From: Candidatus Latescibacterota bacterium
GTDB lineage: Bacteria; Latescibacterota; UBA2968
Direction: 5' to 3'
Length of the DNA stretch: 64,000 bases
Assembly: GCA_965205975.1 (NCBI GenBank)
Contig: OZ242195.1
Span: 2,240,001 to 2,304,000, forward strand
Shown piece after piece: positions 5,861 to 42,886 of this stretch. Position 1 is the first letter of the stretch; every line of letters starts with the position of its first letter. The position numbers were made by a program, and so were the translations under genes. A model generated the notes under the pieces. It had not been told where the DNA came from. It saw nothing but the letters and a program-made list of their open reading frames with translations, and did not search any database.

Positions 5861-6813
5861 TGGCTTTATTTTCTGAGTATGCTGTAACACCTGATGTATT
5901 CAATGAGAGTTGTTATGATTCTCCGGCATTGTGTGACGTACATTTTAAACAATTGCTGGAAGTTTTTTTGAGTGAAGGGCTCGTTCGAAATCTTCGCAAT
6001 GGCGAATGGCAAGCGTTCTTTTCAACCCATGCAAGACCCTGGCACGGCCGTACAAAGCATATTTTGAAAAATTTGATAGATGCTGGTCGTTTGGTACCAA
6101 GTGACCCAGCATCAAGTCACACTCCTCAGACTGATCGTGGATGGTGCAACGAGGCGTTAGAGTCACATAAAACCATACCTTTGAATGGCATTATAGTAAG
6201 CGATGACATTCAAAGGACCTATCGCAGAAATCAGTTGGTTGAAAGTGTGAGCAGACTATCGCAATCTACCTGCGCGTGGTGGGAACCCACAAATAGTTCG
6301 CTTCGATTAGAACGTACTATCAGTCAGTATATAGACGCTCTTAAACTGATTCTCAAACACGCTAAATCCATTATGTTTATCGACCCCAATATCGATCCGG
6401 CAAAGAACAACTATGCTGATTTTGTACAATTACTTGAAGCAGCAGGTAATAGACCATCACAATCACCCCAGCCACTCGTTGAGATACACCGCAAAAGTCT
6501 TCGCGGCTCTGGGAAAAATGCTCCTGTATGGGATCAACAAGATATGGAGAATACATTTCGAACCGAATTTGGCCCAGTTCTTTCGCAGTCAAACTTAAAA
6601 GCAGAAGTCTTTATATGGGATGATTTTCATGATCGTTATCTGATCAGCAATTTAGGGGGAATACTGGTCCCCTATGGATTTGACACGTCAAGCAAGCCTG
6701 ATGACTTAACTACCTGGTCACGACTTGGACGATCAGATCGAGATGATGTACAGCGCGAATTTGCTCGCGAGAGTAATAAACACAAACTGCAGTTTAATTT
6801 TACTATACCGTGA
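5860..6813 (+). CDS. Hypothetical protein with PLD-like (MIT_C-type HDR) domain, cassette 1 partner
   Basis: TAATG overlap with the ATPase. IMFIDPN and FHDRYLISNLGG motifs are shared with the other two partners. Confidence 0.6.
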   Translation: MALFSEYAVTPDVFNESCYDSPALCDVHFKQLLEVFLSEGLVRNLRNGEWQAFFSTHARPWHGRTKHILKNLIDAGRLVPSDPASSHTPQTDRGWCNEALESHKTIPLNGIIVSDDIQRTYRRNQLVESVSRLSQSTCAWWEPTNSSLRLERTISQYIDALKLILKHAKSIMFIDPNIDPAKNNYADFVQLLEAAGNRPSQSPQPLVEIHRKSLRGSGKNAPVWDQQDMENTFRTEFGPVLSQSNLKAEVFIWDDFHDRYLISNLGGILVPYGFDTSSKPDDLTTWSRLGRSDRDDVQREFARESNKHKLQFNFTIP

Positions 6814-6914
6814 AATAGATACCTGACCGAACAATGGCTTGAAGGCGTCCGGGACCAATTGTATTTTTTATTTCACTACTCCCCGACTTTATAGGGTAAC
6901 ATTGATTGGTTTGT

Positions 6915-7013
6915 TGACCCATTCCTAATCGGAGAGAGTTGGATATTCCAAAAGTTTGTCAACCTCAAGCGTTTCGGACAAACCTGAACATTTTTTTCAG
7001 CTTGTGAGAAATC
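6915..7013 (+). repeat. Conserved cassette leader, copy 2
   Basis: Colinear with 4043-4141. Confidence 0.9.
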
Positions 7014-8720: not shown

Positions 8721-8722
8721 TT

Positions 8723-9706
8723 ATGCTGAATATTTTTGCTATTGATCCCAAAATATGTCAAAATTTGGAGTGGTTTCGATATTGCACGGAGCACTGTCAG
8801 CCGTCACAAGGACGTGCAATTGCAGATTTACCGTATGACCAATGGTATGAAAATGCGTTTGCGATCATTCAAGACCTTCAACTTCCTCCTATGGAAGAAA
8901 AAAGCCTGAAAAGGCGTCTGGATCTGGTGCGAGCACAACTGGTAAATCGTCCAAGAACTGATTGGACAGATTGGTATTATGATGATTTTTCAAAATTTCC
9001 CTGGATTGCCGAAGTAGAGAAGGAGCATCAGCGAGCGCGTTTTTCTGCCGTTGTCAGCCCTGATTACGAGGGGGCTGATGATACGGAACTCAAGTATCAT
9101 CCTGATGAACTCAATAGAACCGTAGAGGCCTAGAATACTCCCAGTGGCGTTTCAATTACGCGCAGCCCTGGAGACTTCGTAAATGCCATTCTGCCAATGC
9201 TTCGGATTGCTCGGAATATTCACTTTTTGGATCGATATTTTAACGTGGACAGTAACAGTTCATTTACCCAAAATTACACGCAGATGATCCAGGATTTAGC
9301 CTCATATTGTGATTCCTTTCCATCACTGACAATCCATTGCTGCCCAGACGAAAATGATACGCCTGATTCACGTTACTTTGAAAATGAACTGAATAAGCAC
9401 TACGCGTCCTTAATACCAACAGGAAAATCTGTAAAGGTTCTTTTGTGGCAAACAAATCAAGATGCCCAAATAGAAAGAGGTGCTCATCCCTTTCACAATC
9501 GCTATGTGCTATCTAATCATTGCGGTGTCATTGCGGGATATGGTACGGATAGTGCAAAAGCACCGACTGATGCACCAGATGTCCTTCAGATTGTTGACCA
9601 CAAAATATATTTAGAAATGTGGAATCAAATTCGGGATGAAACATTTCCTATGATCCACATTGAGGAGGAAAACAAGTTTGTGATTAACGGTACTAAAAGC
9701 GCGTGA
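8723..9706 (+). pseudogene. PLD-like partner of cassette 2, interrupted by in-frame TAG at 9131-9133
   Basis: ORFs 8723-9133 and 9197-9706 are in the same frame with an open linker (NTPSGVSITR...). The stop aligns with the Trp of paralogs (AWDDPPSS, AWWEPTNSS), consistent with TGG>TAG. IHFLDRYF and FHNRYVL motifs present. Confidence 0.8.
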
Positions 9707-9739
9707 TTAACAGCGTATAATACGATACCGAAAAATTGA

Positions 9740-9765
9740 GACCTGTCATAAACGACGGGCTGCAA
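9740..9765 (+). repeat. Truncated copy of the array terminator 5' arm
   Basis: GACCTGTCATAAACGACGGGCTGCAA is 22/26 identical to 12039-12064. Confidence 0.75.
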
Positions 9766-9770
9766 TTGTT

Positions 9771-9845
9771 TTAGATATTCCAAAAATTTGTCAACCCCAA
9801 GCGTTTTAGACAAACCTGAACGCTTTTTTCACCTTGTGAGAAATC
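9771..9845 (+). repeat. Conserved cassette leader, copy 3 (5'-truncated)
   Basis: Colinear with 4067-4141. Confidence 0.9.
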
Positions 9846-11072
9846 ATGGCTATTACATCTATAACTATTGAAAATTTCAAGTGCATCGGCGATGCCGTGA
9901 CCGTTCCCATACGCCCCATCACCTTGTTATTTGGCAAAAACAGTTCGGGCAAGTCAACTGTGTTGCAGGCACTCCTCTATCTACGCAAAATATGCAAAGC
10001 AGAACCAGAACCCTGGGAATTAGGTGGCAGAGGCGAGGGCTATGGCAGTGGTAGTGGCGAGCTTTTTGGCGGAGACTCTGATAGAGTTAGTAGCGATAGC
10101 AATAGAGAAATCGATCCAAACCACTTTAGAGGATCGGACGATTTTCGTTCTCTGGTGCATCGCCAGGAATTAGATCGGAAAATTCGAATTCGTCTTGAGT
10201 TTGGCATAAAATCAGAGGATGTGACGAAGTCGAAATCCGCATGGATAGAAATAATAACAGGATGTGACGGAGAACTACACATCAAACCTGATAAAACTGC
10301 GTTGCAGCAGTGTAGGCGCGAATTGCGAGACCTATTAGAGTTAGGACCAGTGCGAGATGTGCCAAAGCAGGCTCTTGGATCAACGTCTGATTTTGCTAAA
10401 GGTACCTGGACAACAGGGTTAGAGGCCTGGTATATACTTGCACAAGATCCCCAATTGCGAGAAAAGACAAACCACTATATGAAAAAGTTAGCACTTGGAT
10501 ACAGTTTCAGGTGTTCTGAAAACGGTGAACACGAAATTCAACTTTATGATGAAACCCATAAGATAGACGTTCATCCTTTACATGTTGGTTTTGGCATTTC
10601 GCAAGTCATTCCAGTCGTGGTAGGTGCATTAGAAAGTTCCCGTCGGCTTTTCGCAGTTGAACAGCCAGAGCTTCACGTTCACCCTGCCCTTCAAGTCGCT
10701 TTGGGCGACTTATTCATTGATGGAATAAAAAATAGCAATCGCACCATGCTCATTGAAACGCATTCTGAACACTTGTTGTTGCGATTGCTGCGACGTGTAC
10801 GTGAGACTAATGTTCGTAACTCGAAAAAATACGAATGGCGACAAAGTTCAATGTCCCCTCTACACCAAGAGATGTCAGAGGCCGCCATTCGTGACGCAGA
10901 AAATCAAGACTCAAAAGATCACCAATTGACGCCAGACGATCTGTCTGTGGTCTATGTTCGACCAACGCCAGCAGGAGTTAAATTCACTCCACTCGCTGTA
11001 ACGAATGACGGCGATTTTAATGCACCATGGCCAGAAGGCTTCTTCGACGAGCGAGTGGAGGAACTTTTATGA
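9846..11072 (+). CDS. ABC/AAA-type ATPase (DUF3696-like), cassette 3, shorter central region
   Basis: GKNSSGKS, VGFGISQ, AVEQPELHVHP, IETHSEH, WPEGFF. Confidence 0.85.
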   Translation: MAITSITIENFKCIGDAVTVPIRPITLLFGKNSSGKSTVLQALLYLRKICKAEPEPWELGGRGEGYGSGSGELFGGDSDRVSSDSNREIDPNHFRGSDDFRSLVHRQELDRKIRIRLEFGIKSEDVTKSKSAWIEIITGCDGELHIKPDKTALQQCRRELRDLLELGPVRDVPKQALGSTSDFAKGTWTTGLEAWYILAQDPQLREKTNHYMKKLALGYSFRCSENGEHEIQLYDETHKIDVHPLHVGFGISQVIPVVVGALESSRRLFAVEQPELHVHPALQVALGDLFIDGIKNSNRTMLIETHSEHLLLRLLRRVRETNVRNSKKYEWRQSSMSPLHQEMSEAAIRDAENQDSKDHQLTPDDLSVVYVRPTPAGVKFTPLAVTNDGDFNAPWPEGFFDERVEELL

Positions 11073-12001
11073 CAAAAGAACAGCGCGATAATAAAAAGCT
11101 GATTCATGATTATGCGTTAGAACCCGAACTGATCGCAAATTGCGATCAATTCTTATTTCGATACCTTACCCAATACAAAAAATTTGGCTGGGACACAGGC
11201 TGCATCGTAGTTCAATACCCCAATCACTGGCGAGAACTGGTTGAGAGACTATTCAATGATAACAAACGGTCCGAACTATTGCTGACGCGTTTGCTTAGAA
11301 CAAAGGCCGTACGCCATGACTCCACGTGGAACGATTTATTCCCTTGGATTGAAAACGCTGCAAACGAAAAAAGTCCCCATCCGTTTCATGTGATCTTGGC
11401 CCACAATAATCCTAACCCACAGAAATGGTCCAACATCGTATGCGCGGAAGATATTTCTCTCGGAGATGATAGAGCTTGGGACGATCCTCCTTCTTCAGCC
11501 ACAGTAAATCGGACTGCTACTTCAATGGCAGCTTGCATTGAGCCTCTGCTAAGATATGCAACGCAAATTCATTTCATTGATCCACATTTTTGCCCGTTGC
11601 AAGATAGATTCAAGAATCCTTTAAGTAAATTCCTAAAAATCATTTGTCACGATAGCCATGAGGTCTCACTCGAATATCACACCTTAGCTGACAACACATT
11701 GTGCTGGAAAGATTTTCAACAGAAATGCGAAGATGAGCTTCCTCATCTAATTCCTAAAGGTTTTACGCTCACTGTCCGCCGTTGGAAAAACAGGGTCGGA
11801 GGTGAGCGTTTTCATAATCGCTATATCCTCACTAACATCGGTGGTGTAGCTTTCGGTAATAGTATCGCCGAAGCTCCGAAAGGAGAGGATAATATCTCCC
11901 GCTTGAGTGAAATTGATTCTCAAAGATGGCTCAATAAGTACTCTGGTGACTCACCTGCATTTGATCTGGAGGGAGAAGTAAATATAAAAAGCACACTATG
12001 A
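11069..12001 (+). CDS. PLD-like (HNR) hypothetical protein, cassette 3 partner
   Basis: ATGA overlap with the ATPase stop. DYALEPE, IHFIDPHF and FHNRYILTNIGG motifs. Confidence 0.6.
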   Translation: MTKEQRDNKKLIHDYALEPELIANCDQFLFRYLTQYKKFGWDTGCIVVQYPNHWRELVERLFNDNKRSELLLTRLLRTKAVRHDSTWNDLFPWIENAANEKSPHPFHVILAHNNPNPQKWSNIVCAEDISLGDDRAWDDPPSSATVNRTATSMAACIEPLLRYATQIHFIDPHFCPLQDRFKNPLSKFLKIICHDSHEVSLEYHTLADNTLCWKDFQQKCEDELPHLIPKGFTLTVRRWKNRVGGERFHNRYILTNIGGVAFGNSIAEAPKGEDNISRLSEIDSQRWLNKYSGDSPAFDLEGEVNIKSTL

Positions 12002-18744: not shown

Positions 18745-19372
18745 AGATGGTTGTATTCCCGTTATTTGTTAGATCTATTTCGGGTATAATCGCCCAAAGC
18801 GATTGCCCGATCAGACGGTGATAAAGGCTCCAAAAACTCGCAAGTGGCAAACCCACCACATTGTAGAAGCAGCCAGAGATGGATTGAATAAATGCAGATG
18901 CACGTCCCTGCGCACCATAAGCACCGGCTTTGTCCATAGAATCGCCAGTGGCGACATAGCGCGAGATATCCTCCGATGAGAGCACGCGCATGGTGACGTG
19001 AGTAGTAGCAACCTCTGTGAGGGTCTGACCGGTTTCCGTATCTGTAAGGGCCAGCCCGGTATAGACTTGATGGGTTTTTCCCGAAAGTTGCGCCAGCATG
19101 TCTTCGGCGTGTTTGGCGTCATTCGGTTTCTCAAAAATCGCATTTTCCAATACCACAACTGTATCGGCACCCAAAATGAGCGCGTGGTCAAAACGATGGA
19201 CAACTGCCTGTGTTTTGCGCTGCGCGATTTCCCTCACATATTCAGCGGGTGGCAAAATAGTATCCAAAGACTCATTCGCATTGCTCGGCGCAATCTCAAA
19301 TGGAATATCCAACAAACGCAACAAACGCGCACGCCTGGGCGAAGCAGACGCGAGAATTAGTCTCTTCTTCAT
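18734..19372 (-). CDS. maf: Maf-family nucleotide pyrophosphatase
   Basis: [29 protein letters not shown]. Confidence 0.95.
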
Positions 19373-19824
19373 ATCTCTGAGTCAATCATCAATGTAACGG
19401 GGCCTGTATTGTAAATTTCGACCTGCATATACGCGCCAAAAACGCCGGTTTCAGTATGAATGCCAAGAGCACAGAAGTGCTGGACAAATTGCTCGTACAG
19501 GGATTTGGCAATATCTGGTGGAGCAGCCCGATTAAAACTCGGACGGCGGCCTTTGCGGGTGTCGGCGTGCAGGGTAAATTGCGAAACCACCAGCGCCTGC
19601 CCACCCGTGTCGAGCAGGGATCTATTCATTTTTCCACGATCGTCCTCAAAAATTCTCAAATTCGCACATTTCTCAGCAACATATTCCATATCCGGCAGAC
19701 CATCGGTATCGCTAATACCCAGCAAAATCAAAAGACCGCCATCAATTTGCCCAACGATTTGTTCTTCAACGCGAACCGTTGCCTCGCACACCCGCTGAAT
19801 CAATGCCCGCACGCTGCCCTCCAT
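19369..19824 (-). CDS. dtd: D-aminoacyl-tRNA deacylase
   Basis: RALIQRV, LRIF, SQFTL, KGRRPSF, GPVT. Confidence 0.95.
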
Positions 19825-19839
19825 TGCTTAAGATGCATG

Positions 19840-19883
19840 TATCATTTATAACTTATTTATGGCATGTGTGCAAGGTGAAAGAT
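19840..19883. repeat. Left direct repeat of sterol island (contains putative dtd promoter on minus strand)
   Basis: 36/44 identical to 27699-27742, including a perfect 14-bp GCAAGGTGAAAGAT. Minus strand reads TTGCAC-17-TATAAA. Confidence 0.8.
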
Positions 19884-20063
19884 GTAAGAGGAGTGAAATG
19901 TGAAGTTGTCATTGTAGCCTGATGTTAAGCCGCAATCCATTAACAGGAATACAACGAGCCAAACGGCTTGTATTTTATTAGAGATATTCGTATTATGGAC
20001 GGTCATAGATTTTAGAATCTGTAAGACGGCTTCTCAGGATTATTTCTGATCGAATGAGGAAAA

Positions 20064-23000
20064 ATGAACACAGGTGACAATTTCCACGGTGAACGCCCCG
20101 GACCGATAGCCTACATGGCTGGTAACAGTGTAGCCGCCAATCTACTGATGTGGGCCATTATCGCCGCCGGGCTGGTGTCGCTGACCGGACTCGACCGGGA
20201 AGCGTGGCCCACCACTCCCTTCTACCATATTGAAGTGTCGATGGCCTATCCCGGCGCCACACCGGAGGAGATCGAGGAGTCGATCGTCGTCAAGATCGAA
20301 GATCAGGTCAGTGGATTGGATGACGTGAAGGCGGTCAAGTCCGTATCGGCCCCGGGTATGGCATCCGTGCGGGTTCAAATGGATTTCGATACGGACATGG
20401 CTCGGGCGTTGAACGATATCGAGTCTGCCGTCAATCGCATACAGTCTTTCCCGATCAGTGCCGAACGTCCCAGTTTCAGGGAGATGACTAACCGCATGAG
20501 CATGATGCGGCTCATTGTTTATGGCGATGTGCCCGAGCGTGCGCTGAAGGAATTGGCGTATCAGATCAAGGATGAACTCACGGCTCTTCCCTCCGTCTCC
20601 CAGGTCGAGGTCAGCGGTATTCGGAAATACGAGATCTCTATCGAGGTACCGCTTCATCGGCTAAGAGCACTTGGACTCACCCTCACCGACATAGCCAACA
20701 CGATTCGTCGCAGTTCACTGGACTTATCTGCCGGCAGTATCAATACCCGGGAATCCCAGGTGCGGGTCCGGACTCTCGGTCAGAACTACGACCAAAAGGA
20801 TTTCGAAGAGATCGTCCTTCTCAGTGGCAGCGACGGCACGGTTTTGCGCGTTGGCGATATCGCCGAGGTTCGCGACGGTTTTCAGGAAACCGACCTGATT
20901 GTCCGGCATCAGAACCATCCCGCTGTATTCGTCGAGGTCTATCGGGCCGATGGTGAGCAAGTGATGGATGTCGCCACGACCGTTCGAGAGCACCTGGCGA
21001 ACGAGGTGATCCCATCTCTACCGGACGGTGTGGGCGTCACCATGTGGAATGACGAATCCCAGGTCTATGAGGAACGCGCCGATCTTCTCCTCAAGAACGG
21101 GATCCTGGGCCTGTTGCTGGTGCTGATCGCACTCAGCCTGTTTCTCGAAATCCGGCTCGCGCTTTGGGTCGCCGTGGGCCTCGCCGTTTCGGGAATCGGT
21201 GCCCTTGCCATCATGATGGCATTCGACGTGGCGATCAACACCATCAGCCTGTTCTCCTTTGTCCTCGCCATAGGAATCATCGTCGACGATGCCATCGTCG
21301 TAGCCGAGTACATCCACTACGAACGCAAGCGGGGAACACCCGGGGTCACGGCCGCGATCCGAGGCGTACGGCGGATCAAGGTGCCGTTGACGTTCGCAGT
21401 TCTGACGTCGGTGGTGGCCTTCGTCCCGTTGCTGTTCATTCCCGGCGGCGTCGGTGAGGTGTGGCGGGCCCTGCCGATCATCATGATCGCCATGCTGCTG
21501 GTTTCCCTGGTCGAATCGCTGTTCGTGCTGCCCAACCACCTGTCTCACCTGCACGGCCCGGAGTGGGTGCCGGCCAATGCCTTCGACCGGTTCTTCGCGC
21601 GGCTCCAGGGGCGCGTTGACGCGCTGCTGAACAGGTTCGTCCAAGGCCCGCTGGATCGGGCCCTGCAGTTCGCCACCGACCAGCCCGTGGTGACGATGTC
21701 GGGGGCTGTGGGAATGCTCGTGCTGAGCATCTCCCTGTTGCCCGCGGGGATCGTTCCTACCACGCTGGCCGCTGACGTGGAGGGGGATATCGCGACGGTC
21801 GTCCTGGAGATGCCCGATGGGGCGACCGCTCCGAGGACGTACGAAGTGGCGCAGGAACTGGAGGCCGCAGGCCACCGGGTCATCGAACGACTCTCGCGCG
21901 GCCGGCCCGGGGATGCGCCACCGCTGCTGACTGGCGTAACGGTGACTGTCGGACAGGGCTCGAGACTCGGGGGCGGACTCAATCCGGAGCCGACCCTCAA
22001 TCCGCAAGCCAACATCGCCACCATTGAGTTCAAACTCCTGGGCGCACAACAGAGAGAAATCTCCACCGGAGAGGTCGTGCAGGCATGGCGGGAGGAGGTG
22101 GGTGTGCTACCCCACGTACGCGGCATCACCTTCAGCGGCGAGGTCTTTGACTTGGGCAACCCGGTGGAGGCCGTGTTGTCGCATCCGGACCCGGAGCGCC
22201 TTGCCCGGATTGCAGACTCCGTGGTCGATGGTCTCCGTGGAGTGGGAGGCGTCTTCGATATACGCTCGGATCACACCCCGGGCATCCCGGAAGTTCAACT
22301 GGAGCTGCAGCCAGAAGGTCGAACTCTCGGTCTCACACTCCACGACCTGGCCGGGCAGGCACGGGCGGCGTTCTTCGGCGCAGAGGCCGTTCGGGTGCAG
22401 CGCGACCGGGAAGAGGTCCGGGTCTATGTGCGCCTGCCCTCCGATGAACGAAAATCCATCACCGATGTCGAAGGATACCTGCTCCGTACTCCGAGTGGTG
22501 CCGAGGTCCCGGTTATGAGTGTGGCCTCCCTGAACCCGGGGGTGTCGCCGCCGGCCATTCGACGGAAGGACGGCCAGCGCGTCGTCACGGTCACTGCGGA
22601 CGTGGATGCTTCGGTGATTTCAGGCGACGAAGCCAACGACATCCTGGCCAATTCGATCCTCGCGGATCTGACCGCCCTGCACCCGGACCTGACATACAGC
22701 TTCGGAGGGGAACAACAACAGCAGCTCGAATCCCTGGATGCGCTGTATCGCGGATTTGCGATTGCCATGCTCCTGATCTTCGCGCTGCTCGCCATCCCCC
22801 TCCGATCCTATACAAAGCCGTTCATCATCATGGCCGTCATCCCCTTCGGGTTCATCGGAGTGATCCTGGGTCACTGGGTCCTGGGAGTAGCCCTGAGTGC
22901 CGTATCTTTCATGGGTATCTTCGGCCTGAGTGGGGTGGTCGTGAACGATTCCCTGGTCATGATCGATTTCATCGATCAGGAACTCGAGGAAGGCATGCCG

Positions 23001-23246
23001 GCGCAAACTGCAATCATAGAGGGCGCAAAAGGGCGATTTCGCCCAATTATGCTCACTTCCGTGACTACGTTCCTCGGCTTCACTCCCCTTATTCTGGAAC
23101 GTGCCATCCAAGCCCAGTTCCTGATCCCCTTTGCCGCGTCTCTCGGTTTCGGCATTCTCATTACCACGGCCATACTTATGATGATCGTTCCCGCGCTATA
23201 CGCGATCCATTTGCATCTGATTTCTCTGCGCAGTAATACGAGTTAG
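20064..23246 (+). CDS. RND efflux transporter permease (AcrB/AcrD/AcrF family)
   Basis: AANLLM, YPGATPEEIE, GIIVDDAIVVAE, GVVVNDSLVM, RFRPIMLTS. 1060 aa with GC-rich codon usage. Confidence 0.93.
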   Translation: MNTGDNFHGERPGPIAYMAGNSVAANLLMWAIIAAGLVSLTGLDREAWPTTPFYHIEVSMAYPGATPEEIEESIVVKIEDQVSGLDDVKAVKSVSAPGMASVRVQMDFDTDMARALNDIESAVNRIQSFPISAERPSFREMTNRMSMMRLIVYGDVPERALKELAYQIKDELTALPSVSQVEVSGIRKYEISIEVPLHRLRALGLTLTDIANTIRRSSLDLSAGSINTRESQVRVRTLGQNYDQKDFEEIVLLSGSDGTVLRVGDIAEVRDGFQETDLIVRHQNHPAVFVEVYRADGEQVMDVATTVREHLANEVIPSLPDGVGVTMWNDESQVYEERADLLLKNGILGLLLVLIALSLFLEIRLALWVAVGLAVSGIGALAIMMAFDVAINTISLFSFVLAIGIIVDDAIVVAEYIHYERKRGTPGVTAAIRGVRRIKVPLTFAVLTSVVAFVPLLFIPGGVGEVWRALPIIMIAMLLVSLVESLFVLPNHLSHLHGPEWVPANAFDRFFARLQGRVDALLNRFVQGPLDRALQFATDQPVVTMSGAVGMLVLSISLLPAGIVPTTLAADVEGDIATVVLEMPDGATAPRTYEVAQELEAAGHRVIERLSRGRPGDAPPLLTGVTVTVGQGSRLGGGLNPEPTLNPQANIATIEFKLLGAQQREISTGEVVQAWREEVGVLPHVRGITFSGEVFDLGNPVEAVLSHPDPERLARIADSVVDGLRGVGGVFDIRSDHTPGIPEVQLELQPEGRTLGLTLHDLAGQARAAFFGAEAVRVQRDREEVRVYVRLPSDERKSITDVEGYLLRTPSGAEVPVMSVASLNPGVSPPAIRRKDGQRVVTVTADVDASVISGDEANDILANSILADLTALHPDLTYSFGGEQQQQLESLDALYRGFAIAMLLIFALLAIPLRSYTKPFIIMAVIPFGFIGVILGHWVLGVALSAVSFMGIFGLSGVVVNDSLVMIDFIDQELEEGMPAQTAIIEGAKGRFRPIMLTSVTTFLGFTPLILERAIQAQFLIPFAASLGFGILITTAILMMIVPALYAIHLHLISLRSNTS

Positions 23247-23328
23247 CAATCTCTCCGACCTGCGGTCGGTCTCAGCTACGTAGCAGACCAGTTCCACTGT
23301 TTCAAATGAGAATAAGACTTGCCTTCCC

Positions 23329-23357
23329 TTGACCAAATATTTGTATTTATTTATATT
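23329..23357 (+). promoter_or_regulatory. Putative sigma70 promoter for P450-SMT operon
   Basis: TTGACC-17nt-TATATT in an AT-rich gap. AAGGAGG precedes ATG 23421. Confidence 0.5.
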
Positions 23358-23420
23358 TGCCATAAGTACAGTAAGGGCAAGTGCCTTATGGTATTGAAGT
23401 AATGCAAGGAGGCCGAGGCT

Positions 23421-25448
23421 ATGGCTAATACTACCGAGGGTTTCCAATCGCTAAGTCTCACCGAAGAGCTCATCCTGATGCTCCTCAACGAGGAGACTGG
23501 TTACTTTCACCAGGTACCCGGCTGGCATTTGCACTGCGCCGTGGTCGGTGCCGTGCTCGCGGAGCTTTCACTCAGATCGCGCATCGACACGGACCTGGAA
23601 TCCCTGTTCCTCGTGGACGAGTCGGAAACGGGGAGACCTGCCCTGGACCCCATTCTGAAAGAAATCGCAGCCGAATCTGTTCAACGGAACGCCCAGTACT
23701 GGATCGAACGGCTCGCTCCCCGTGCGGAATCGATCATTGATTCGGTTCTGGACCGCCTGGTTGACCTGAAGATCCTGGAATATCACGACGGTGAATTCTG
23801 GACACTGGCTCCTACCGTCTGGCGTGGAGAACTGTCCAGCAAGTCGGAAGAGAGCACTGCAGGCCAGTTCATAAAAACGCGGATCAGCAGGGTCATCTTC
23901 ACCGACGAGATTCCCGATCCGAGAGATGTCATCATTATCTGCCTCGTCAATACCTGCGACGTCTTTCGTTTCATATTCCAGCTCGACGACGAGGCGGAGG
24001 AGCGCATCGAGTTCATCTGCAAGATGGATCTGATCGGCCGCTCCCTGGCCTCTGCGGTCTCTCAGAACCTCGCCCGCCGAGCCCTTCGCCGTCCTGCCCT
24101 TGCCAGGAAAATTCCGACGGTTTCGCTGCCCAAGCTGCTGCTGAACCCGCATAGTCGAGACGGCAACCTGAACGCGCTCTTCGGGAACCTTGCGGAGGAG
24201 TACGGTCCGGTGTTCCAGATCCGCCCACCCTTCTCGAAGCCCATGATCTTCCTGGCCGGACTCGAGACAAACCGCTGGGTGCACAAGCGCGGGCGCATGT
24301 ACCTGAGAGCCAGGGACTACTTCAGCGACTTCGAGAAGGTCTATGGCGCGTCCGGCGTCCTGCCCGCCCTGGACGGAGCCGATCACTTCCGGCTTCGCCA
24401 GTCTCTGTCGCCCGCCTATTCTGCCGTGAGGCTGGGAGGGCAGCTAGGCCAGCTCTACAATCAGGGGCGCAAGTACATGGCGAGCTTGACGGTTGGGGAC
24501 TCATACCGCGCCACGTCCATGTGTCGGGAGATGGTGAACGCCCAGCTCTCCCCACTGTTCATCGGCGTCGATACCCAGGACCTCATGGACGACCTGATGG
24601 CGTACAAGGAACGGGCCCTCAGCGTGCACGTCGCCAAGCTTCTGCCCAGATTCACGCTGAACACCCCGGGCATGAGACGCCGGGCGAAAGCCCTGGACAC
24701 ACTGATGCAGCGGGTCCAGGACATCCATACCTCCGCCCAACGGGCGGACAGCCCGCGGGATCTGGTGGACGATTACCTCAGCCTGCACGCGAGCGACCCG
24801 CAGTTTCTCCCAGAGTCCAACCTGCTGTTCTCCTTTTCCGCGGCCTTGATTGCCAGCGTGTACCTCGGCGATACGTTCAGCCTCGTAGTCTACGCCATGG
24901 CGTCACAGCCCGACCTCTACGCCAGAATCCAGGCCGAAGCAGATGCCCTGTTCGCCAAGGGAGACCCCGAGAGAGAGGATTTCACCCCCGCCAACATTGA
25001 CGTTACCCACCGCTTCCTCATGGAGTGCATGCGCATGTACCCGATCGTCTCCATGTCCATTCGGAACGTGATGAATACGTGCGTGGTCGAGGACTACGAG
25101 CTGCCCATGGGGGAACGTATCCACATCGCCATGACCGCCACGCATTACATGAGCGAGGTCTTTCCCGATCCCTACAAGTTCGACATCGACCGCTACCTGC
25201 CATCGCGCCATGAACACCGAAGCCCCGGGTACGCCCCGTACGGGCTGGGCACGCACAAGTGTCTCGGCACCCGGTGGATGGAACTGCACCTGGCGGCCAA
25301 CTTGTTGATGCTGGCGCACTACTTCACGATTGAGGTGTCGCCGGTGAAGTACAATCACAAGCTCCGTTTCAGTCCGTTCCCGTCGCTGAAACCGAGCAAG
25401 AAGCTGAAGTTCCGCATCTCCCAGCAGAGACGGGAGCTGTTCACCTGA
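23421..25448 (+). CDS. GPP34 (GOLPH3/Vps74-like) domain fused to cytochrome P450
   Basis: N-terminal ~220 aa LTEELILMLLNEETG...GAVLAELSLRSRID resembles the GPP34 family. C-terminal P450 has ECMR (ExxR), FPDPYKFDIDRY and the heme motif YGLGTHKCLG. Confidence 0.8.
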   Translation: MANTTEGFQSLSLTEELILMLLNEETGYFHQVPGWHLHCAVVGAVLAELSLRSRIDTDLESLFLVDESETGRPALDPILKEIAAESVQRNAQYWIERLAPRAESIIDSVLDRLVDLKILEYHDGEFWTLAPTVWRGELSSKSEESTAGQFIKTRISRVIFTDEIPDPRDVIIICLVNTCDVFRFIFQLDDEAEERIEFICKMDLIGRSLASAVSQNLARRALRRPALARKIPTVSLPKLLLNPHSRDGNLNALFGNLAEEYGPVFQIRPPFSKPMIFLAGLETNRWVHKRGRMYLRARDYFSDFEKVYGASGVLPALDGADHFRLRQSLSPAYSAVRLGGQLGQLYNQGRKYMASLTVGDSYRATSMCREMVNAQLSPLFIGVDTQDLMDDLMAYKERALSVHVAKLLPRFTLNTPGMRRRAKALDTLMQRVQDIHTSAQRADSPRDLVDDYLSLHASDPQFLPESNLLFSFSAALIASVYLGDTFSLVVYAMASQPDLYARIQAEADALFAKGDPEREDFTPANIDVTHRFLMECMRMYPIVSMSIRNVMNTCVVEDYELPMGERIHIAMTATHYMSEVFPDPYKFDIDRYLPSRHEHRSPGYAPYGLGTHKCLGTRWMELHLAANLLMLAHYFTIEVSPVKYNHKLRFSPFPSLKPSKKLKFRISQQRRELFT

Positions 25449-25487
25449 CGACTTGGCTCCTTGTGGAGCCAGGGGAAACACCACAAA

Positions 25488-26522
25488 ATGCGGCTGTGCA
25501 AACTATCGAGAGAGCTGAGAGATGCGTACCGGGGATCGGGCGTCGCACGTCGAGTGCAGCACTTCGACGGCTGGCTTGACCGGGCGGCGCTGGAACCCGG
25601 TGGCCCGGGCGGGTACGATCACACGGAAACAGTGAAAGACTATTACGACCTTTGCAGCGGGTTCATGGTGTGGGGCTGGGGCCAGTCCCTGCACTTCGCG
25701 CCCCTCACGCCTCATGAGAGTCTGGAGGAGTCTCAGGTCCGGCATCAGCGGCTGATGATTTCCAAGTTGGAACTGCAACAGGGTATGACAGTGATCGACG
25801 TTGGTTGTGGAGTCGGCGCCCCCATGCGCCGCGTCGTCCGTGAGGCTGGTGTCAGGGTTGTAGGAATCAACATCAATGAGATCCAGTTGGAAGAGGCGAA
25901 GAGGTTGAACGCCGAGGCAGGGCTTGATCACATGGTCGATTTCGAGACGTGCAGCTTCATGGACATGAGCATCATTGAGGACGACACCTTCGACCGGGGT
26001 TATGCCATAGAGTCAACGTGCCATGCACCGGACAAGCAACGCGCCTTCGAAGAGGTATTCCGCGTGCTGAAACCCGGTGCCCTGTTCTGGGGGCAGGAAA
26101 TGTGTCTGACGGGCAAGTTCAATCCGAAGGACGACCGGCATCGGGCCATCAAGGAGGATCTCATGCGCGGCATTGCGCTGAGGGACATCGCCACCTTCGA
26201 GGAAGTGAATCACGCGCTCGGAGCCGCGGGATTCCAAGTCATGGAAGGGATGGACCGGGCGATCCAGGAAGGACCCTCCACACCTTGGTATCAACCCATG
26301 GAGAGTCGCCATGGGACGGTTGGAAACGCCTTGCGCAGGCTTCCTTGGGGCCGTAAAGCGGTCATCACAGGATCGAAGCTGGCTGAAGTACTGCGGCTCT
26401 TTCCGAAGGGCTCCGCGGAAGTCATCCGACTCCTGGATCGGACCGCGGAGGCTTATATCGCGGGCGGCAAGGCGGGTATCTTTACGCCGCTGTACTGTTT
26501 CTTGGCTCGCAAGCCTCTTTAG
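25488..26522 (+). CDS. Sterol C-24 methyltransferase (ERG6/SMT-like)
   Basis: YYDL..F..WGWGQSLHFAP, IDVGCGVGAP, YAIESTCHAP, VLKPG, PWY, C-terminal GIFTPLY..LARKP. Alternative start at 25461. Confidence 0.85.
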   Translation: MRLCKLSRELRDAYRGSGVARRVQHFDGWLDRAALEPGGPGGYDHTETVKDYYDLCSGFMVWGWGQSLHFAPLTPHESLEESQVRHQRLMISKLELQQGMTVIDVGCGVGAPMRRVVREAGVRVVGININEIQLEEAKRLNAEAGLDHMVDFETCSFMDMSIIEDDTFDRGYAIESTCHAPDKQRAFEEVFRVLKPGALFWGQEMCLTGKFNPKDDRHRAIKEDLMRGIALRDIATFEEVNHALGAAGFQVMEGMDRAIQEGPSTPWYQPMESRHGTVGNALRRLPWGRKAVITGSKLAEVLRLFPKGSAEVIRLLDRTAEAYIAGGKAGIFTPLYCFLARKPL

Positions 26523-26540
26523 GCGCGCCTAGGCGCGCCT
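26521..26540. repeat. Tandem duplicated 10-bp palindrome between convergent genes
   Basis: AGGCGCGCCT AGGCGCGCCT. Confidence 0.8.
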
Positions 26541-26555
26541 TCGCGCGGGCCCCTC

Positions 26556-27653
26556 TTAGTCGGAGACCGAGTCCCCACTTCCCTTCGCAATCGTCGGATC
26601 GGGATAGAACTGCTGGCAATACCGGCGGTACTTCCCTATGGGGCCGTCGGCCCTACACAGCCTGGGGGGAGACCGATACCGCTTCCGTTCCCAGATCACC
26701 ACATCCTGCAGGACATCCCGTTTCTGTTGTGACATTAAAATACGATTCATTAACCTGTGCCGCAGCTTCATCGGCAGAAACCCCAGACCTGAGATAAATC
26801 GCCGGGGCTTGCGGATTTCCCTCAGTTGGCTGACCAGTACAAGATCGATGAGGGTGCCATCAATGGGCGTTGCGAGTACCCACAACCTCGCATTCATATC
26901 AATAGTTTTCTCGTGGATCTCGACGAAGGAGTAGCCCAGTCCATAGACATGGGTGATAGCCGAGGGTTCGTACACGAGGTCCTTTACACCCAGGATCCTG
27001 CGAACGCGTTTGAAGTCGAAGCAACTCTTCAGGTAGGCGCCCTCCACCTTTACCGAACCGACCGGATTCACATTGTCGTAACCATGCACATAGCGCAGGT
27101 GTCCCAGATCTACTGAGTTCTCGGTTGTTTCCTGGGGATGTCCACGGAACCGGAATATGTTGAATCTCAGTTCACACCACTCTTGTCCAGTGGTTGGCTC
27201 AGCTGGTAGATCCCACTGCGACGACCGTCCGCCGCTCCCAAACCAGGCGAAGACCATGCCGAGGATCTCTCGCGTCTCATATACTTTCAGCCTCGCGGCT
27301 CTCGGTGCCGGGGCGTTCGGAGTCGCAACGCATTGACCGGTCGTATCGTACTCAAATCCGTGAAACGGACAGACGAGCCTACCATTGCATATCTTCCCAC
27401 CGACCTCCGGTCCCATGTGCGAGCCCAGGTGCGGACATACCGCGTCGGCCACACAGACACGGCCTGCATCGTCGCACCATGCGACGATTTCCTCCCCCAG
27501 CCACGTCTTCTCGATCAGTTTCTCTCGCAAAATGGAATCGCGGCTTGCGACGAAATACCACCCTTCAGGGAACGGCGGTAGCGCATCAGCGCCATTCATG
27601 ACCGGTCGATTAGTATCACTGGTTCGTAAATCCGCAGATTCTGTCAAAGACAT
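26556..27653 (-). CDS. Rieske [2Fe-2S] non-heme iron oxygenase (Neverland/DAF-36/KshA-like steroid oxygenase)
   Basis: FPEGWY, CPHLG...CPFHG, ENSVDLGHLRYVH, C-terminal DVVIWERKRY..PPRLC..DGPI..YRRYCQQFY. Start 27653 follows GAGGT; the ORF extends to 27704. Confidence 0.8.
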   Translation of the reverse strand: MSLTESADLRTSDTNRPVMNGADALPPFPEGWYFVASRDSILREKLIEKTWLGEEIVAWCDDAGRVCVADAVCPHLGSHMGPEVGGKICNGRLVCPFHGFEYDTTGQCVATPNAPAPRAARLKVYETREILGMVFAWFGSGGRSSQWDLPAEPTTGQEWCELRFNIFRFRGHPQETTENSVDLGHLRYVHGYDNVNPVGSVKVEGAYLKSCFDFKRVRRILGVKDLVYEPSAITHVYGLGYSFVEIHEKTIDMNARLWVLATPIDGTLIDLVLVSQLREIRKPRRFISGLGFLPMKLRHRLMNRILMSQQKRDVLQDVVIWERKRYRSPPRLCRADGPIGKYRRYCQQFYPDPTIAKGSGDSVSD

Positions 27654-27698
27654 AAAGGGTCTTACCTCATATTTAAAACATACAAAGCCATATCGCAT

Positions 27699-27742
27699 TA
27701 TCATCTATAAGATATCTACGGCAGATGAGCAAGGTGAAAGAT
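27699..27742. repeat. Right direct repeat of sterol island (putative promoter for Rieske gene)
   Basis: Matches 19840-19883. Minus strand reads TTGCTC-17-TATAGA. Abuts the lptD-like stop codon. Confidence 0.8.
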
Positions 27743-27743
27743 T

Positions 27744-30095
27744 TTATATTCCAAATCCCCCGCGTCGGTGTTCAAACTTTATTTGCGGGATGTCCTTAAT
27801 ATTGATCTTAAAAAAGAACCCCTTATTAAAACCCGCGGGATACCACGAAAATCGCGCTTCCCAACAGTGCAGATCGCGGTAAAGCGATAGGCTTTGCGCC
27901 GAGATTTTGGCATCGGGCAGAACATCGATATTGATCGAATAGTCAATTCTTATAAATTGGCGAGGATTGATGCCAACATCTGCTTTGATCCAGGATGTTT
28001 TGCTCGTTGTACTGCCAAACCGCCGCATCGCAATATAGTGTGAGAGATTGAATCGCCAGGGTTGGCTGGTGCCACCGAAATCGCTATATAGATCGCGTTC
28101 AAAGCCAAAATCTGCGCCATATCCCCCCCCGTATCCACCGCCATATCCAGCATCATACCCAGGGTCGTATCCATCGGGAAGAGCGGACTGGATAACCATA
28201 TTGCCTCGTCCAGCTCGACCGCCAGAAAAACGGAAATTGGAGGTAATGGTCAGATTCTGCATGCGCGGATGCAAAAGCGAACGCTGGCCTGTACTGTCAT
28301 AGAGCGTATGGGTCATCGCAATGCGAACATCCACGCGGCGATCTGGTTTGAGAGACGCGCTGGCACGAAGCGGACGCCATTTTTGTCTCGGCGCGTCAAA
28401 ATCATATCCCGTTGACAAATTGAGCGTCGCCAGGGTAAAGCGACGCACATCGTCGTCGCGCTGGGTTTTGAGTTCAAAAGTATTGCCGATATTAAAATTT
28501 ATGCTGCGTCTGGCATCGTCCCATCTGCGATTGCCCCCAAAACCCAGAGTTCCTTGAAATATGCTTCCCGATTGATTGTAATTGAAATTGATTCGAGGCT
28601 GAAAACGATGTCGGATGCCGCGCAACTGGCCAATTTGCGGTTGGAAGATGCCGTATAATGTCGTACCCGAAGACAGTGCCGCATTGTAAGACGTGCGTCG
28701 GGTTGTCGAATCGGTATCGCTATATATAAACTCTTCGCCAAAATTAAAGCCCGGCGTGAGATCGAGCCAGCCCATGGGACGGTGTTGGCTGTTGACCGTG
28801 ACGCGGTTTTGAAGAGAGACGCGCTCCGTATTGGGCGCTGGATCGGGGTTGCGCGCAAAGTTATTCGACAAGGTACTCGAAACACCATAATAAAAGGCAC
28901 GATACCACGGTCCCGTAACAGATGTGGGTTCATTACCTCCAAATATGCGGCGTCTGTTTTGTCGAAAGCTGAGGCGGGGAAAGCCCTGAAAACTATTATT
29001 TTTTGTCCTCAGGTCGCGGTAATACGTTAGACTGCCGTCAATGCTGCGCCCGGATTCTATCCAGCGTTTGTCAAAAGAAAAACTGGACCTCAGTTGCCGA
29101 TTGAGATAGCGATAGAGATTATTGCTATTGCGTCGATCAAAGTTGGTACTGGTCGAAAACTGCCCGCTCCCCCTGATATTGGTCGTGGCGTTGAGGCGTT
29201 GCTGATGTTGCAAATTAAAGCGCCAATTGTGAGCCGTAGCATCGCCTGAGGTATCGTGGTCGTATCCGATATCCATTGAGCCACTGAATCGATTGCGTCT
29301 GGCATAAGCAAATCGCGATTCGAGCAAGAATCCACCACGCTCGCGCAAAGTACTCTTAACCGTGGCATCCCAGTATTCACTCGGCGCAAAATAATATCCC
29401 AAATTGTGAACAAAAATGCCATCGCGGCTGTTGCTGCCCACGCCCGGCGTGAGCAAGCCCGATTGCCGCCCGCGCTTGACTGGAAATACAAAAAAAGGAA
29501 CCCAGAAAACGGGAATCGGGCCAATGCGAAAAGTAACAGATCGCCCAATCGCCTTATCATCTTGCAAAATACGCACATTTTTGCACAAAAAATCGTAGTG
29601 TACATGGTCGCGGTCACAGGTACTCAAAGAGAGGTCCAGAGCATTTAGCGCTTTTTGACCATCGAGTACAATGCGGGCACCGCGATAGTGTTTGCGCTGA
29701 TGTGACGCGCGTCCATCTCGCACCCTACCGCGTTCTGTATCCAGGTTATAGATCATGTACTCACCCGATATTTTTTCGCTGCCGCGGGTAAATTGGGGTA
29801 GTCCCACGGTTTTTGCCCCGGTGGAATCGGGCAATGCGCGTGCCGTAACATGCCGGATGTTTTGATCGTATGTGATATAACCGGCTTTGAGTTGCAAATC
29901 GCGATAGCGCAAGATGGCATTGCCGATCAATTCGACGCGCCTGGTCTGTACGTGATAAACAACCTCGTCGGCGTCAAATGTTATGGAATCGCCAGCCACT
30001 TTTTGCGGCAAAACGGGTTGGCACCATCCCGGCGTAATCGCAAATAGCAGGAACAAAACGAGCCACACGGCTTGTATTTTATTACAAGTATTCAT
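27744..30095 (-). CDS. Putative LPS-assembly protein LptD-like outer-membrane protein
   Basis: Signal peptide, OstA-like N-terminus, PVFWVPFFVFP...RQSGLL.P, GYYFAPSEYWD, RDLHCWE. Start uncertain; the ORF extends to 30131. Confidence 0.8.
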   Translation of the reverse strand: MNTCNKIQAVWLVLFLLFAITPGWCQPVLPQKVAGDSITFDADEVVYHVQTRRVELIGNAILRYRDLQLKAGYITYDQNIRHVTARALPDSTGAKTVGLPQFTRGSEKISGEYMIYNLDTERGRVRDGRASHQRKHYRGARIVLDGQKALNALDLSLSTCDRDHVHYDFLCKNVRILQDDKAIGRSVTFRIGPIPVFWVPFFVFPVKRGRQSGLLTPGVGSNSRDGIFVHNLGYYFAPSEYWDATVKSTLRERGGFLLESRFAYARRNRFSGSMDIGYDHDTSGDATAHNWRFNLQHQQRLNATTNIRGSGQFSTSTNFDRRNSNNLYRYLNRQLRSSFSFDKRWIESGRSIDGSLTYYRDLRTKNNSFQGFPRLSFRQNRRRIFGGNEPTSVTGPWYRAFYYGVSSTLSNNFARNPDPAPNTERVSLQNRVTVNSQHRPMGWLDLTPGFNFGEEFIYSDTDSTTRRTSYNAALSSGTTLYGIFQPQIGQLRGIRHRFQPRINFNYNQSGSIFQGTLGFGGNRRWDDARRSINFNIGNTFELKTQRDDDVRRFTLATLNLSTGYDFDAPRQKWRPLRASASLKPDRRVDVRIAMTHTLYDSTGQRSLLHPRMQNLTITSNFRFSGGRAGRGNMVIQSALPDGYDPGYDAGYGGGYGGGYGADFGFERDLYSDFGGTSQPWRFNLSHYIAMRRFGSTTSKTSWIKADVGINPRQFIRIDYSINIDVLPDAKISAQSLSLYRDLHCWEARFSWYPAGFNKGFFFKINIKDIPQIKFEHRRGGFGI

Positions 30096-30294
30096 AATTT
30101 TAAAGTGTGTTGTGGATTTTGTGGAGTACAAACGTAAATTCGAGGATTGGAAAAGTCAACAGAGGTTCTATGGTAGAATCCTCTGGATCAATGCTTTGCG
30201 TCATGTCCTGTACAAACAAGGGAATACCTCGGTTGTTCCGTTTTTATTGATATATTTCAGCGGAATCTGTATCTTTACTTTTCGCAACAAATAT

Positions 30295-30381
30295 GCGGAC
30301 GTGGTGGAATTGGCAGACACGCCAGATTTAGGATCTGGTGGGGTAAAACCCGTGGGGGTTCGAGTCCCCCCGTCCGCACCA
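30295..30381 (+). tRNA. tRNA-Leu (TAG)
   Basis: GCGGACG acceptor stem, D-loop GGAATTGGCAGAC, anticodon arm CCAGA-TTTAGGA-TCTGG, long variable arm, GGTTCGAGTCC, 3' CCA. Confidence 0.95.
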
Positions 30382-41665: not shown

Positions 41666-42886
41666 TCAATCACCTCTGACCGCAGTCCGCACCACCATGC
41701 CTTCAGTTGCGACCTGAATCCCGCCTATGACGACCGCCTGGCCGGCTTCCAGAGTGCCGGTTACGAACACTTTATCATCGGAACGCTGAAGGACGCGCAC
41801 CGGGACGATGGTCAATCGTTTGTCATCGCGCACTGCCCAAATCTCGTTGCCTGGCCTGAGTGCTGACCGTCGCAGGATGAAGTACCGGTCTGGGATGATT
41901 CCCTCAATTCGTACTTTCACAAACTTACCCACAAGAAGGGGCGGACCTGGACCAGCATTTGCATTATCGCCATCTGCTCCAGCCCAGGTGCCGCTTGCAA
42001 AGGGGTCCGGAACGCGTACGATGACGTTGATGGTGCGCGTCTGTTCGTCCAAGGATGCCTCCGCCCGATCTACATAGCCCTCCCAGGCATAGCTCCCTTT
42101 GCCGTATTCAGCTATGACGTGAGCCTTGACCCGCCGGTCTCCGTCGCCCGCTTCCAACTCCCATAGGCCGGGGATGAGAACCGCGTTGGCGTCGGACAGG
42201 GGAACCACTACTTCGACGGCGTTGGCCGCGTAAAGTCGCCCTGCGCTCTGGCCAGCTACCACGAACTGCCCCACATCTATCGACTCGATCCGCACGACTC
42301 CGCTGAAGGGCGCACGTATCTCTGTGCGGGACAAAGCCAATTCAGCGTCAGCGAGCATGGCACTATCTCTACCTAAAGCGGCTTGGGCAGCCTCGAGCTG
42401 AGGCTGCCGCAATACCAGAGGACTGGCCTCCGTCAGAGACGTGCGATCCGCCTGACGGCGTTTATATTGTGCGTATTCAGCGCGTGCGATCCGGGCCTCT
42501 TCCTCCTCCTGAAGAAGTACTACCTGCTGTGCGGCCACGTTGGCACGTGCCTGCTGCACTCTGTTGCGATAGTCGGCGTCCTCAATGCGGAAGAGAACCT
42601 GCCCTTCGCGAACTCGTCCGCCACTCTGAAAGGCCGGATCCACCCAAACAACCTTACCATTGATTTCGGCAGCGACATCTATCTCTGCGACAGGTCGAAC
42701 CGTCCCGGCTCCGTACACGGGAATTGCACTGGTACCGACCACTGCAGGCGTTGCGGTTACGAAGGGAATCTGGGTGGGAAGAGGTCGGAGTTCCGGATTG
42801 GGCTTCAACCAGACCATAAGGCTGGCAAAAAACAAGGATATGAGAAGGACGGCACCGGCCGTGAGTAAGCTTCTTCCTCGATTCAT
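41666..42886 (-). CDS. RND efflux periplasmic adaptor (membrane fusion protein)
   Basis: N-terminal TM, GTVRP...EINGKVV, GGRVREGQVLFRIE, coiled coil, LSRTEIRAPFSGVV. GC-rich like the sterol island. Confidence 0.9.
   Translation of the reverse strand: MNRGRSLLTAGAVLLISLFFASLMVWLKPNPELRPLPTQIPFVTATPAVVGTSAIPVYGAGTVRPVAEIDVAAEINGKVVWVDPAFQSGGRVREGQVLFRIEDADYRNRVQQARANVAAQQVVLLQEEEEARIARAEYAQYKRRQADRTSLTEASPLVLRQPQLEAAQAALGRDSAMLADAELALSRTEIRAPFSGVVRIESIDVGQFVVAGQSAGRLYAANAVEVVVPLSDANAVLIPGLWELEAGDGDRRVKAHVIAEYGKGSYAWEGYVDRAEASLDEQTRTINVIVRVPDPFASGTWAGADGDNANAGPGPPLLVGKFVKVRIEGIIPDRYFILRRSALRPGNEIWAVRDDKRLTIVPVRVLQRSDDKVFVTGTLEAGQAVVIGGIQVATEGMVVRTAVRGD

Follow-up and report, generated by a model that had tools for sequence, protein, structure and literature searches.

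A horizontally acquired cassette of sponge symbionts in a Candidatus Latescibacterota genome: a candidate module for the tailoring and export of scavenged sterols

What might a bacterium whose genome yields no genes for making sterols do with a compact block of genes whose products fall into sterol-acting families? The question is raised by a 64,000-nucleotide stretch of a Candidatus Latescibacterota genome (assembly GCA_965205975.1, contig OZ242195.1, positions 2,240,001 to 2,304,000; hereafter the window, in whose coordinates positions are given), where four open reading frames (ORFs), all full-length and intact, occupy 19840-27742. They encode an AcrB/HAE1-type RND permease (1060 aa; 20064..23246, + strand; PF00873, 531 bits), a GPP34-cytochrome P450 fusion of the kind named GPP34_L (675 aa; 23421..25448, + strand; Pfam GPP34 and p450), a member of the sterol methyltransferase (SMT) family from a derived clade that we call MVW after its Region I motif (344 aa from the ATG; 25488..26522, + strand, the frame being open from a TTG at 25461), and a Rieske non-heme iron oxygenase with a KshA_C domain (365 aa when counted from the likely ATG; 26556..27653, − strand, convergent with the SMT gene, the frame being open to 27704). 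Our preferred answer, to which we assign a probability of roughly 0.6, is that these genes form an old, horizontally acquired sponge-symbiont cassette that would oxidatively tailor a scavenged sterol or steroid and export it.

The block has the features of a genomic island, namely atypical composition, a target duplication, and an empty site in relatives. Its GC content is 58.1% against 50.9% for the genome, a value equaled by just 0.8% of the genome's 7.9-kb windows, and the GC content at third codon positions is 0.62-0.79 in its genes versus 0.50-0.54 in nine flank genes. The ends are marked by a 44-nt direct repeat from the dtd-lptD intergenic stretch, with a left copy at 19840..19883 and a right copy at 27699..27742, directly below the lptD stop codon; the copies agree at 36/44 nt, and the second-best site in the 5.56-Mb genome reaches 28/44. 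The initial annotation, made from the sequence alone, had described a higher-GC four-gene block with a flanking direct repeat, and this description holds. The adjoining host genes are dtd on the left, from the row dtd-maf-rodZ-priA (19369..19824, − strand; PF02580), and an lptD-like gene on the right (27744..30095, − strand; PF19838); the flank genes have 91-97% identity to their counterparts in Candidatus Latescibacterota loci.

Comparison within the genus, where dtd is present in 19 of 21 genomes, identifies the site before and after insertion. In six genomes (G001, G006, G012, G015, G017, and G019) it is empty, lptD following ~65-140 nt after dtd, and the four empty sites inspected hold a single repeat copy between the two genes. 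Cassette genes fill it in nine (G000, G002, G003, G004, G005, G008, G009, G010, and G020), ~1 kb separates dtd and lptD in G016, and G011 and G018 are rearranged there; the comparison left out G007. Because the empty sites hold one copy, the direct repeat is the duplicated, and by now decayed, target site of the insertion. A 52-nt relic (19941..19992, − strand; 44/52 to 30045-30096), which the initial annotation does not mention, is a second and now decayed copy of the lptD 5′ end, covering about 17 codons. Such a second copy also lies next to dtd in 8/8 other filled loci and at none of the empty sites; it may derive from an lptD duplication during insertion, and at locus L117 it reaches 96 nt, with no clear match to an lptD promoter. 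A tRNA-Leu gene (30295-30381) was considered as the integration site and rejected, since it is located on the far side of lptD and the repeat belongs to the gap between dtd and lptD. A Pfam scan found no integrase or transposase among the island genes, no plasmid carrying the SMT was found at E 1e-30, Rfam gave no match between 19000 and 31000 apart from the tRNA, and a promoter scan of the left gap returned chance-level matches only. Between the convergent SMT and Rieske stop codons (26520-26555) lies a GC-rich palindrome, a possible terminator.

With dN/dS values of 0.11-0.32 when five related loci are compared (0.12-0.18 for the RND gene in its five comparisons), all four island genes are, by this measure, under purifying selection. 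Pseudogene decay was rejected on these values and on the SMT change G132A being common to 11/75 loci. Split P450 or Rieske matches at L017, L043, L050, L073, and G012:C22 represent either decay or assembly error. Metatranscriptome contigs from four runs (three studies) carry partial RND, P450, and SMT genes at 90-99% identity, two of them also a partial Rieske gene; the same contigs span flank genes too and may be of DNA origin, so they are not counted as evidence of expression.

The cassette is widely distributed. A scan of GTDB genomes returned at least 556 SMT relatives, of which the best 80 (73-96% identity) were analyzed with neighborhoods of up to 10 kb: a P450 gene accompanies the SMT at 75 of these loci, a Rieske gene at 69, and an RND gene at 41, so the genes proposed initially as a module do occur together elsewhere. 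They carry 11 phylum labels that change 21 times on a quick tree (65 tool-labeled plus 15 unlabeled rows; submitter labels are imperfect), on which Acidobacteriota and Rhodothermota copies nest within Longimicrobiales copies with a support of 99; support on this tree, as on the 91-row tree discussed below, is SH-aLRT only. A full-length SMT with 96% identity occurs in three genomes of another family. The horizontal acquisition suggested at the outset is thus borne out by GC content, empty sites, and a cross-phylum tree. The sponge habitat fares likewise, as 6/6 DNA-type runs that hold the stretch and have a plain habitat label are sponge metagenomes.

Gene content in relatives separates a core from an accessory part. 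The Rieske gene occurs in 25 of 41 genomes of the order, a cassette-type P450 (at least 53% identity) in 22, and the SMT in 14; these 14 are exactly those with a P450 at least 80% identical, and all 14 have the Rieske gene. SMT-less cassettes consist of pump, P450, and Rieske gene, and the SMT is found in 14 of the 25 cassette-bearing relatives. The core is therefore pump, P450, and Rieske oxygenase, and the SMT is an accessory that travels with one P450 subtype. The P450 and SMT appear to have been swapped as a unit, because their dS (0.05-0.12) is lower than that of lptD/lysA (0.22-0.38) in three of five comparisons. At the dtd-lptD site, G004 (L125) and G005 (L119) carry other P450 subtypes (70% and 53%, respectively), and the G004 site has no SMT. 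When a simple ORF caller was applied to the 80 loci, clusters of neighbors comprised an LkcE-like flavoenzyme (35 loci), an adaptor (19), and an outer-membrane channel (13); the flavoenzyme was not found in the island genome. Two MMPL families with above-cut-off sterol-sensing-domain matches occur at 12 loci each, often where the RND gene is absent, and SMO-OSC, CYP51, ERG24, or sdmA genes stand at 7/80 loci, with an ERG24-like gene at one more. A TPR protein at 13 related loci was considered as a Bst-like sterol carrier and rejected, having no PDB sequence match; it is absent from the island.

In this genome, a sterol substrate made in the cell can be largely set aside. The initial annotation had reported no squalene epoxidase or cyclase genes in the window, and none of these families appears among the 45 window ORFs scanned; the absence extends to the whole genome (98% complete), where neither a triterpene cyclase nor a squalene epoxidase turned up. 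The 20 congeners likewise yielded no cyclase, SMO-OSC and ERG24 representatives gave no tblastn match in the genome, and no de novo sterol cluster (OSC, CYP51, ERG24) was found there; a PF01222 search, having had no positive control, is uninformative by itself. Any sterol substrate would thus have to come from outside, given that synthesis genes are lacking. This sets the island apart from the clusters of steroid genes (CSGs) of Ircinia symbionts, which the available text of PMC9531527 describes as ERG24-CYP51-OSC synthesis operons; they resemble the cassette in having spread horizontally across symbiont phyla and being under purifying selection, and sometimes lie adjacent to it. Two side observations concern isoprenoid metabolism. 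A FAD-dependent geranylgeranyl-reductase-like protein is encoded at 897-2162 and, by Pfam, is not a squalene epoxidase. Near 3.70 Mb of the island genome (L138:3-2331, on G000:C1), two squalene/phytoene synthase genes and a flavoprotein gene stand in a row, presumably hpnCDE-like, with no cyclase found.

The Rieske protein retains intact metal ligand motifs (CxH...CxxH, DxxHxxxxH, and the C-terminal Asp) together with KshA_C (77.7 bits vs a Pfam cut-off of 23.3), and is the sole KshA_C protein found in the genome. It shares these motifs and the Rieske plus KshA_C architecture with KshA, Neverland/DAF-36, and SdmA. Its best PDB matches are KshA (E 1.5e-20), and cholesterol 7-desaturase is the automatically given name of both closest Atlas clusters (0.97), so the sterol-family ancestry first read from its motifs stands. 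From these cluster names, through which alone Neverland is set beside it, a Neverland-like reaction is a reasonable guess. SdmA identity was rejected, since the protein scores 30 bits on NF052579 (cut-off 600 bits; an SdmA from a cluster scores 415) and is 25% identical to a neighboring SdmA. Its nearness to KshA could also suggest sterol or steroid catabolism, KshA being its best solved relative, yet that relationship is distant (E 1e-20) and neither a KshB-type reductase nor a 9,10-seco pathway was found in the genome (PF00970, PF08028, NF005882). The only FAD_binding_6 match lies in an Nqr-like operon, and PF08028 and above-cut-off PRK07843 matches are lacking genome-wide, which makes ring degradation unlikely. 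As the Rieske gene is moreover linked to a methyltransferase and an exporter, we regard catabolism as scarcely credible. Seven 2Fe-2S matches occur in the genome, and such proteins could supply the electrons.

The P450 fusion, the sole P450 found in the genome, retains the heme ligand Cys614, present in 75/75 matches, and the ExxR motif. Its predicted fold is confident (pLDDT 83), with the heme-Cys loop (606-613) below 50. The profile of its family has Methylococcus CYP51 as its top PDB match, at 118 bits vs 92 for the next family. At the I-helix, IASVY-LG (Tyr481) with a one-residue deletion replaces the oxygen-activation motif AGx(D/E/H)T, given as AGxDT in PMC6464246. The tyrosine is present in 75/75 matches, a subfamily at 42% included, and the acid-threonine pair is kept in all three of the distant GPP34-P450 paralogues (33-35%) that lie outside the cassette and were inspected. 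Ordinary hydroxylation by the fusion is doubtful, because Tyr stands in for the acid-threonine pair. P450s lacking the threonine include sterol C-22 desaturases and isomerases. Of the initial link between this P450 and sterols, a weak family ancestry (the CYP51 profile match) survives, and the conventional oxygen-activating pair is absent.

The fusion has a published interpretation of its own. Having GPP34 and P450 domains in a sponge symbiont, it belongs to GPP34_L, which Ferreira et al. (2025; PMC11706023) found in 92.6% of 27 Latescibacterota symbiont genomes and proposed to be a secreted effector that binds phosphatidylinositol 4-phosphate (PI4P) and blocks phagosome maturation; the other island genes would then be passengers. 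The restriction of the fusion to sponge symbionts and the adjoining export pump agree with this proposal. We consider it a very remote prospect here, since by eye there is no signal-peptide-like N-terminal stretch, P450s normally require cytoplasmic electron donors, and the gene is tied to lipid-modifying enzymes. The likeness to Vps74 is faint (E 0.16), the alignment being too weak to compare PI4P-binding residues. In the available text of PMC11706023, the model is framed as needing validation, the words 'sterol' and 'methyltransferase' occur 0 times, and no sterol genes figure; the domain architecture is the same as in the island fusion, and cassette-type members differ in having the Tyr I-helix. 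Elsewhere in the genome (L116:6679-7332; G000:C1:5436678-5437331), a short GPP34 gene stands by itself, with 37% identity to the GPP34 domain of the fusion.

The methyltransferase carries methyltransferase and Sterol_MT_C domains (the latter at 56.7 bits vs a Pfam cut-off of 21.7) and nests within the SMT family: in a 91-row tree, the MVW clade is monophyletic (support 100) on a long stem (0.78) next to canonical-motif homologues, so its sterol-family ancestry is upheld. The initial annotation went further and saw an ERG6-type alkylase of sterol C-24, which, with a conventional side-chain P450 and a ring oxygenase, would make biomarker-relevant 24-alkyl sterols. In common with active sterol 24-C-methyltransferases (ERG6 and bacterial SMTs), the enzyme has the fold, Sterol_MT_C, the S-adenosylmethionine (SAM) motif, and, with numbering anchored on the motifs of Brown and Welander (2025; 10.64898/2025.12.19.695621) and on canonical paralogues, the yeast-essential residues H90, D125, G129, P133, and E195. 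Of the 25 residues that this preprint, in its available text, reports as conserved across all active SMTs, it retains 22; the three changes are T78S, F89L, and G132A. Region I reads M-V-W instead of Y81-E82-Y/F83, with loss of D79 and E82. Met81 is present in 75/75 clade loci parsed from the best 80, and T78/Y81/E82/F89 are kept in 64/68 distant matches; among 80 metagenome loci, 16 fall in the MVW clade (61-81% identity) and 64 lie at 45% or below. Position 249 is Ile in 73/75 loci; where propylating SMTs (24-isopropyl) require Gly249 together with Phe81 and/or Phe83, the island enzyme has Ile238, Met69, and Trp71 (window numbering), and the G249I mutant of a propylating SMT gave C28 sterols only, the second and third methylations being lost (Brown and Welander 2025).

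A relative has reportedly been assayed. By its gene spacing (sdmB, SMT, three genes, SMT), locus L041 matches the scaffold that carries the SMTs listed as 'Nitrospira sp., coral reef 1 and 2', whose second SMT homologue ('coral reef 2 of 2'; IMG 2682229270; PMC10070321) is 79% identical to the island SMT, belongs to the same MVW clade, and carries S78 and L89. Because these break residues kept in all active enzymes of the preprint, we infer that it is inactive on the standard substrates desmosterol and 24-methylenecholesterol. The same Rieske and GPP34-P450 genes stand alongside it, a cassette that is not described in the available text of PMC10070321; L041 differs in that its genes adjoin a complete sterol synthesis cluster, whereas the island genome has no cyclase and has an RND pump. 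Locus L061 has its genes in the same order as the Aplysina cluster described in Brown et al. 2023 (PMC10070321), and its canonical SMT has G225 and F81; it likely holds a second tested member of the clade. The island SMT shares 44% identity with the canonical paralogues of both loci, L041 and L061. A C-24 alkylase is accordingly a poor fit, and we hold it very unlikely even though, as Brown and Welander note, inactive homologues may need other substrates; the assignment fails on residues and on its closest tested relative, and relevance to 24-alkyl biomarkers loses its support with it. An analogy, likened by description, is offered by Caenorhabditis elegans, a sterol auxotroph with the Rieske 7-desaturase DAF-36 and the SMT-family enzyme STRM-1 (4-SMT; PMC6997595), which lacks the aromatic signature in Region I, ignores zymosterol, and methylates C-4 of the 3-oxo sterols on which it depends. 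Separately, loci L152-L155 hold SMTs of the canonical-motif clade (41-43% to the island SMT) in sister-family genomes without a full-length cyclase match, one of them beside another Rieske gene.

A more specific role for the clade, which we rate as a long shot, is that it represents the missing sterol C-26 methyltransferase, with products exported to the sponge. The Tyr-type P450 would introduce a C-25(26) double bond into 24-alkyl sterols of the host, or codisterol or clerosterol would come from a canonical SMT, and the MVW enzyme would extend the chain to aplysterol- and 26-methylstigmastane-type skeletons. According to the available text of Brown et al. (PMC10070321), 26-SMTs are undiscovered and (epi)codisterol, outside the two substrates tested, is their likely substrate; (epi)codisterol is made by the canonical SMT neighboring the L041 copy, and a 2025 PNAS paper, in the part available, treats the whereabouts of the relevant SMTs as unsettled. 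Against the idea, 6/16 metagenome copies are on contigs with a prefix that Brown lists under Sarcotragus foetidus, and Sarcotragus has no 26-methyl major sterol in Brown's sterol table.

The direction of transport was judged from the pump. Being of the AcrB export type, the RND protein is more likely to export than to import. Most filled sites open with a gene for a periplasmic adaptor (MFP), and the one in this genome does not; an MFP gene that the initial annotation had not noticed lies 14 kb away (41666..42886, − strand; TIGR01730 above cut-off), with 58.6% GC and 78-80% identity to the MFPs preceding RND at the same site in relatives, compared with 51-62% to other cassette MFPs. It stands between moaE and a DUF2961 gene, as it does in the one other filled locus without a pre-RND MFP; the loci of five other relatives have no MFP there, so the position is used in 1/6. 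The cassette pump has thus probably kept its adaptor in a displaced position. Permease and adaptor being present, the best match for an outer-membrane channel is 31% identical, with no close orthologue. Elsewhere in the genome (L115:7459-13085; G000:C1:393458-399084), genes for an MpaB/Lcp-type oxygenase, an HAE3/MMPL transporter, and two exported proteins form a candidate lipid import/export partner; the transporter is 65% identical to the MMPL protein beside the SMT in other symbionts.

Taken together, these features suggest the following scheme. A sterol supplied by the host, or by co-symbionts that make sterols, would enter the inner membrane, where the Rieske enzyme would oxidize or desaturate the ring system, most likely at C-7 in the Neverland manner. 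The P450, held at the membrane by GPP34, would then carry out a non-standard oxidation; desaturation is favored, given the Tyr in place of the acid-threonine pair. In cassettes that have it, the MVW methyltransferase may place a SAM-derived methyl group on the olefin or oxo-steroid made by the P450, not on C-24 of desmosterol. Housekeeping ferredoxins would provide the electrons, and export of the product would fall to the RND protein, working with the displaced adaptor and borrowing an outer-membrane channel. Such a scheme would explain why SMT and P450 are coupled, why the SMT would be inactive on its own, and why the genes are linked to sterol clusters and to sterol-sensing transporters. 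The analysis itself documents the insertion and spread of the genes, their linkage, the selection on them, the families they belong to, and the changes in their motifs; the mechanistic steps are all deduced.

Several points weigh against the preferred reading. The substrates of all four proteins are assigned from sequence and context, and the cholesterol 7-desaturase name is automatic. Kinship and physical linkage inflate the co-occurrence counts, which are not independent, and in two of the five comparisons the dS of P450 and SMT is not below that of the host genes. The island itself encodes neither a redox partner nor a sterol importer nor a close outer-membrane channel, and AcrB-type pumps take a broad range of substrates. 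The fusion is only ~20% identical to CYP51; Foldseek places the fatty-acid-binding CYP184A1 first and CYP51 second, fold-level matches that do not tell CYP51 from fatty-acid P450s for this model. The best folds for the SMT model, again at fold level, are the natural-product methyltransferases TleD and AtmM; to our knowledge, no true SMT structure exists. The sole SMT relative traceable to a test, the L041 copy, is the one judged inactive on two sterols.

These points lend some weight to a tolerance cassette, in which enzymes recruited from sterol families would oxidize and methylate a non-sterol lipophilic sponge metabolite (a terpenoid, meroterpenoid, oxylipin, or polyacetylene) before it is pumped out. 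A core of one pump and two oxygenases suits this role, as do a spread over 11 phylum labels within one habitat, which would fit a private benefit, the rebuilt or distant active sites of all three enzymes, the LkcE-like accessory flavoenzyme, and the fatty-acid P450 as top Foldseek match. We nevertheless think it rather unlikely: the cassette repeatedly lies beside de novo sterol clusters, transporters with sterol-sensing domains replace the pump, and three independent enzymes indicate steroid-acting families. Detoxification of a host steroid, for its part, would count under the preferred reading of sterol tailoring and export.

Elsewhere in the window, a stretch of 38-45% GC (4142-12001) holds three AAA_15/AAA_21 ATPase genes; behind each come one or two genes that have no Pfam match, an arrangement resembling a defense island.

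The GPP34-P450 fusion and single SMT relatives are already in print; in the openly licensed literature, our searches turned up neither a description of the cassette nor a paper connecting GPP34 with sterols or reporting a 26-SMT. For the sponge-specific fusion, previously read as a host-manipulating effector, the cassette supplies a biochemical context, and a P450 family whose oxygen-activation site holds a Tyr may catalyze unusual reactions. The 'inactive' bacterial SMT homologues would be explained as members of an enzyme clade of their own that acts on a different substrate, and SMT counts in sponge metagenomes should not stand for C-24 alkylation capacity. The cassette provides a short, testable list of candidates for orphan sponge sterol chemistry, such as C-26 extension and ring desaturation, and candidates for C-26 extension bear on 26-methylstigmastane as a biomarker of early animals.

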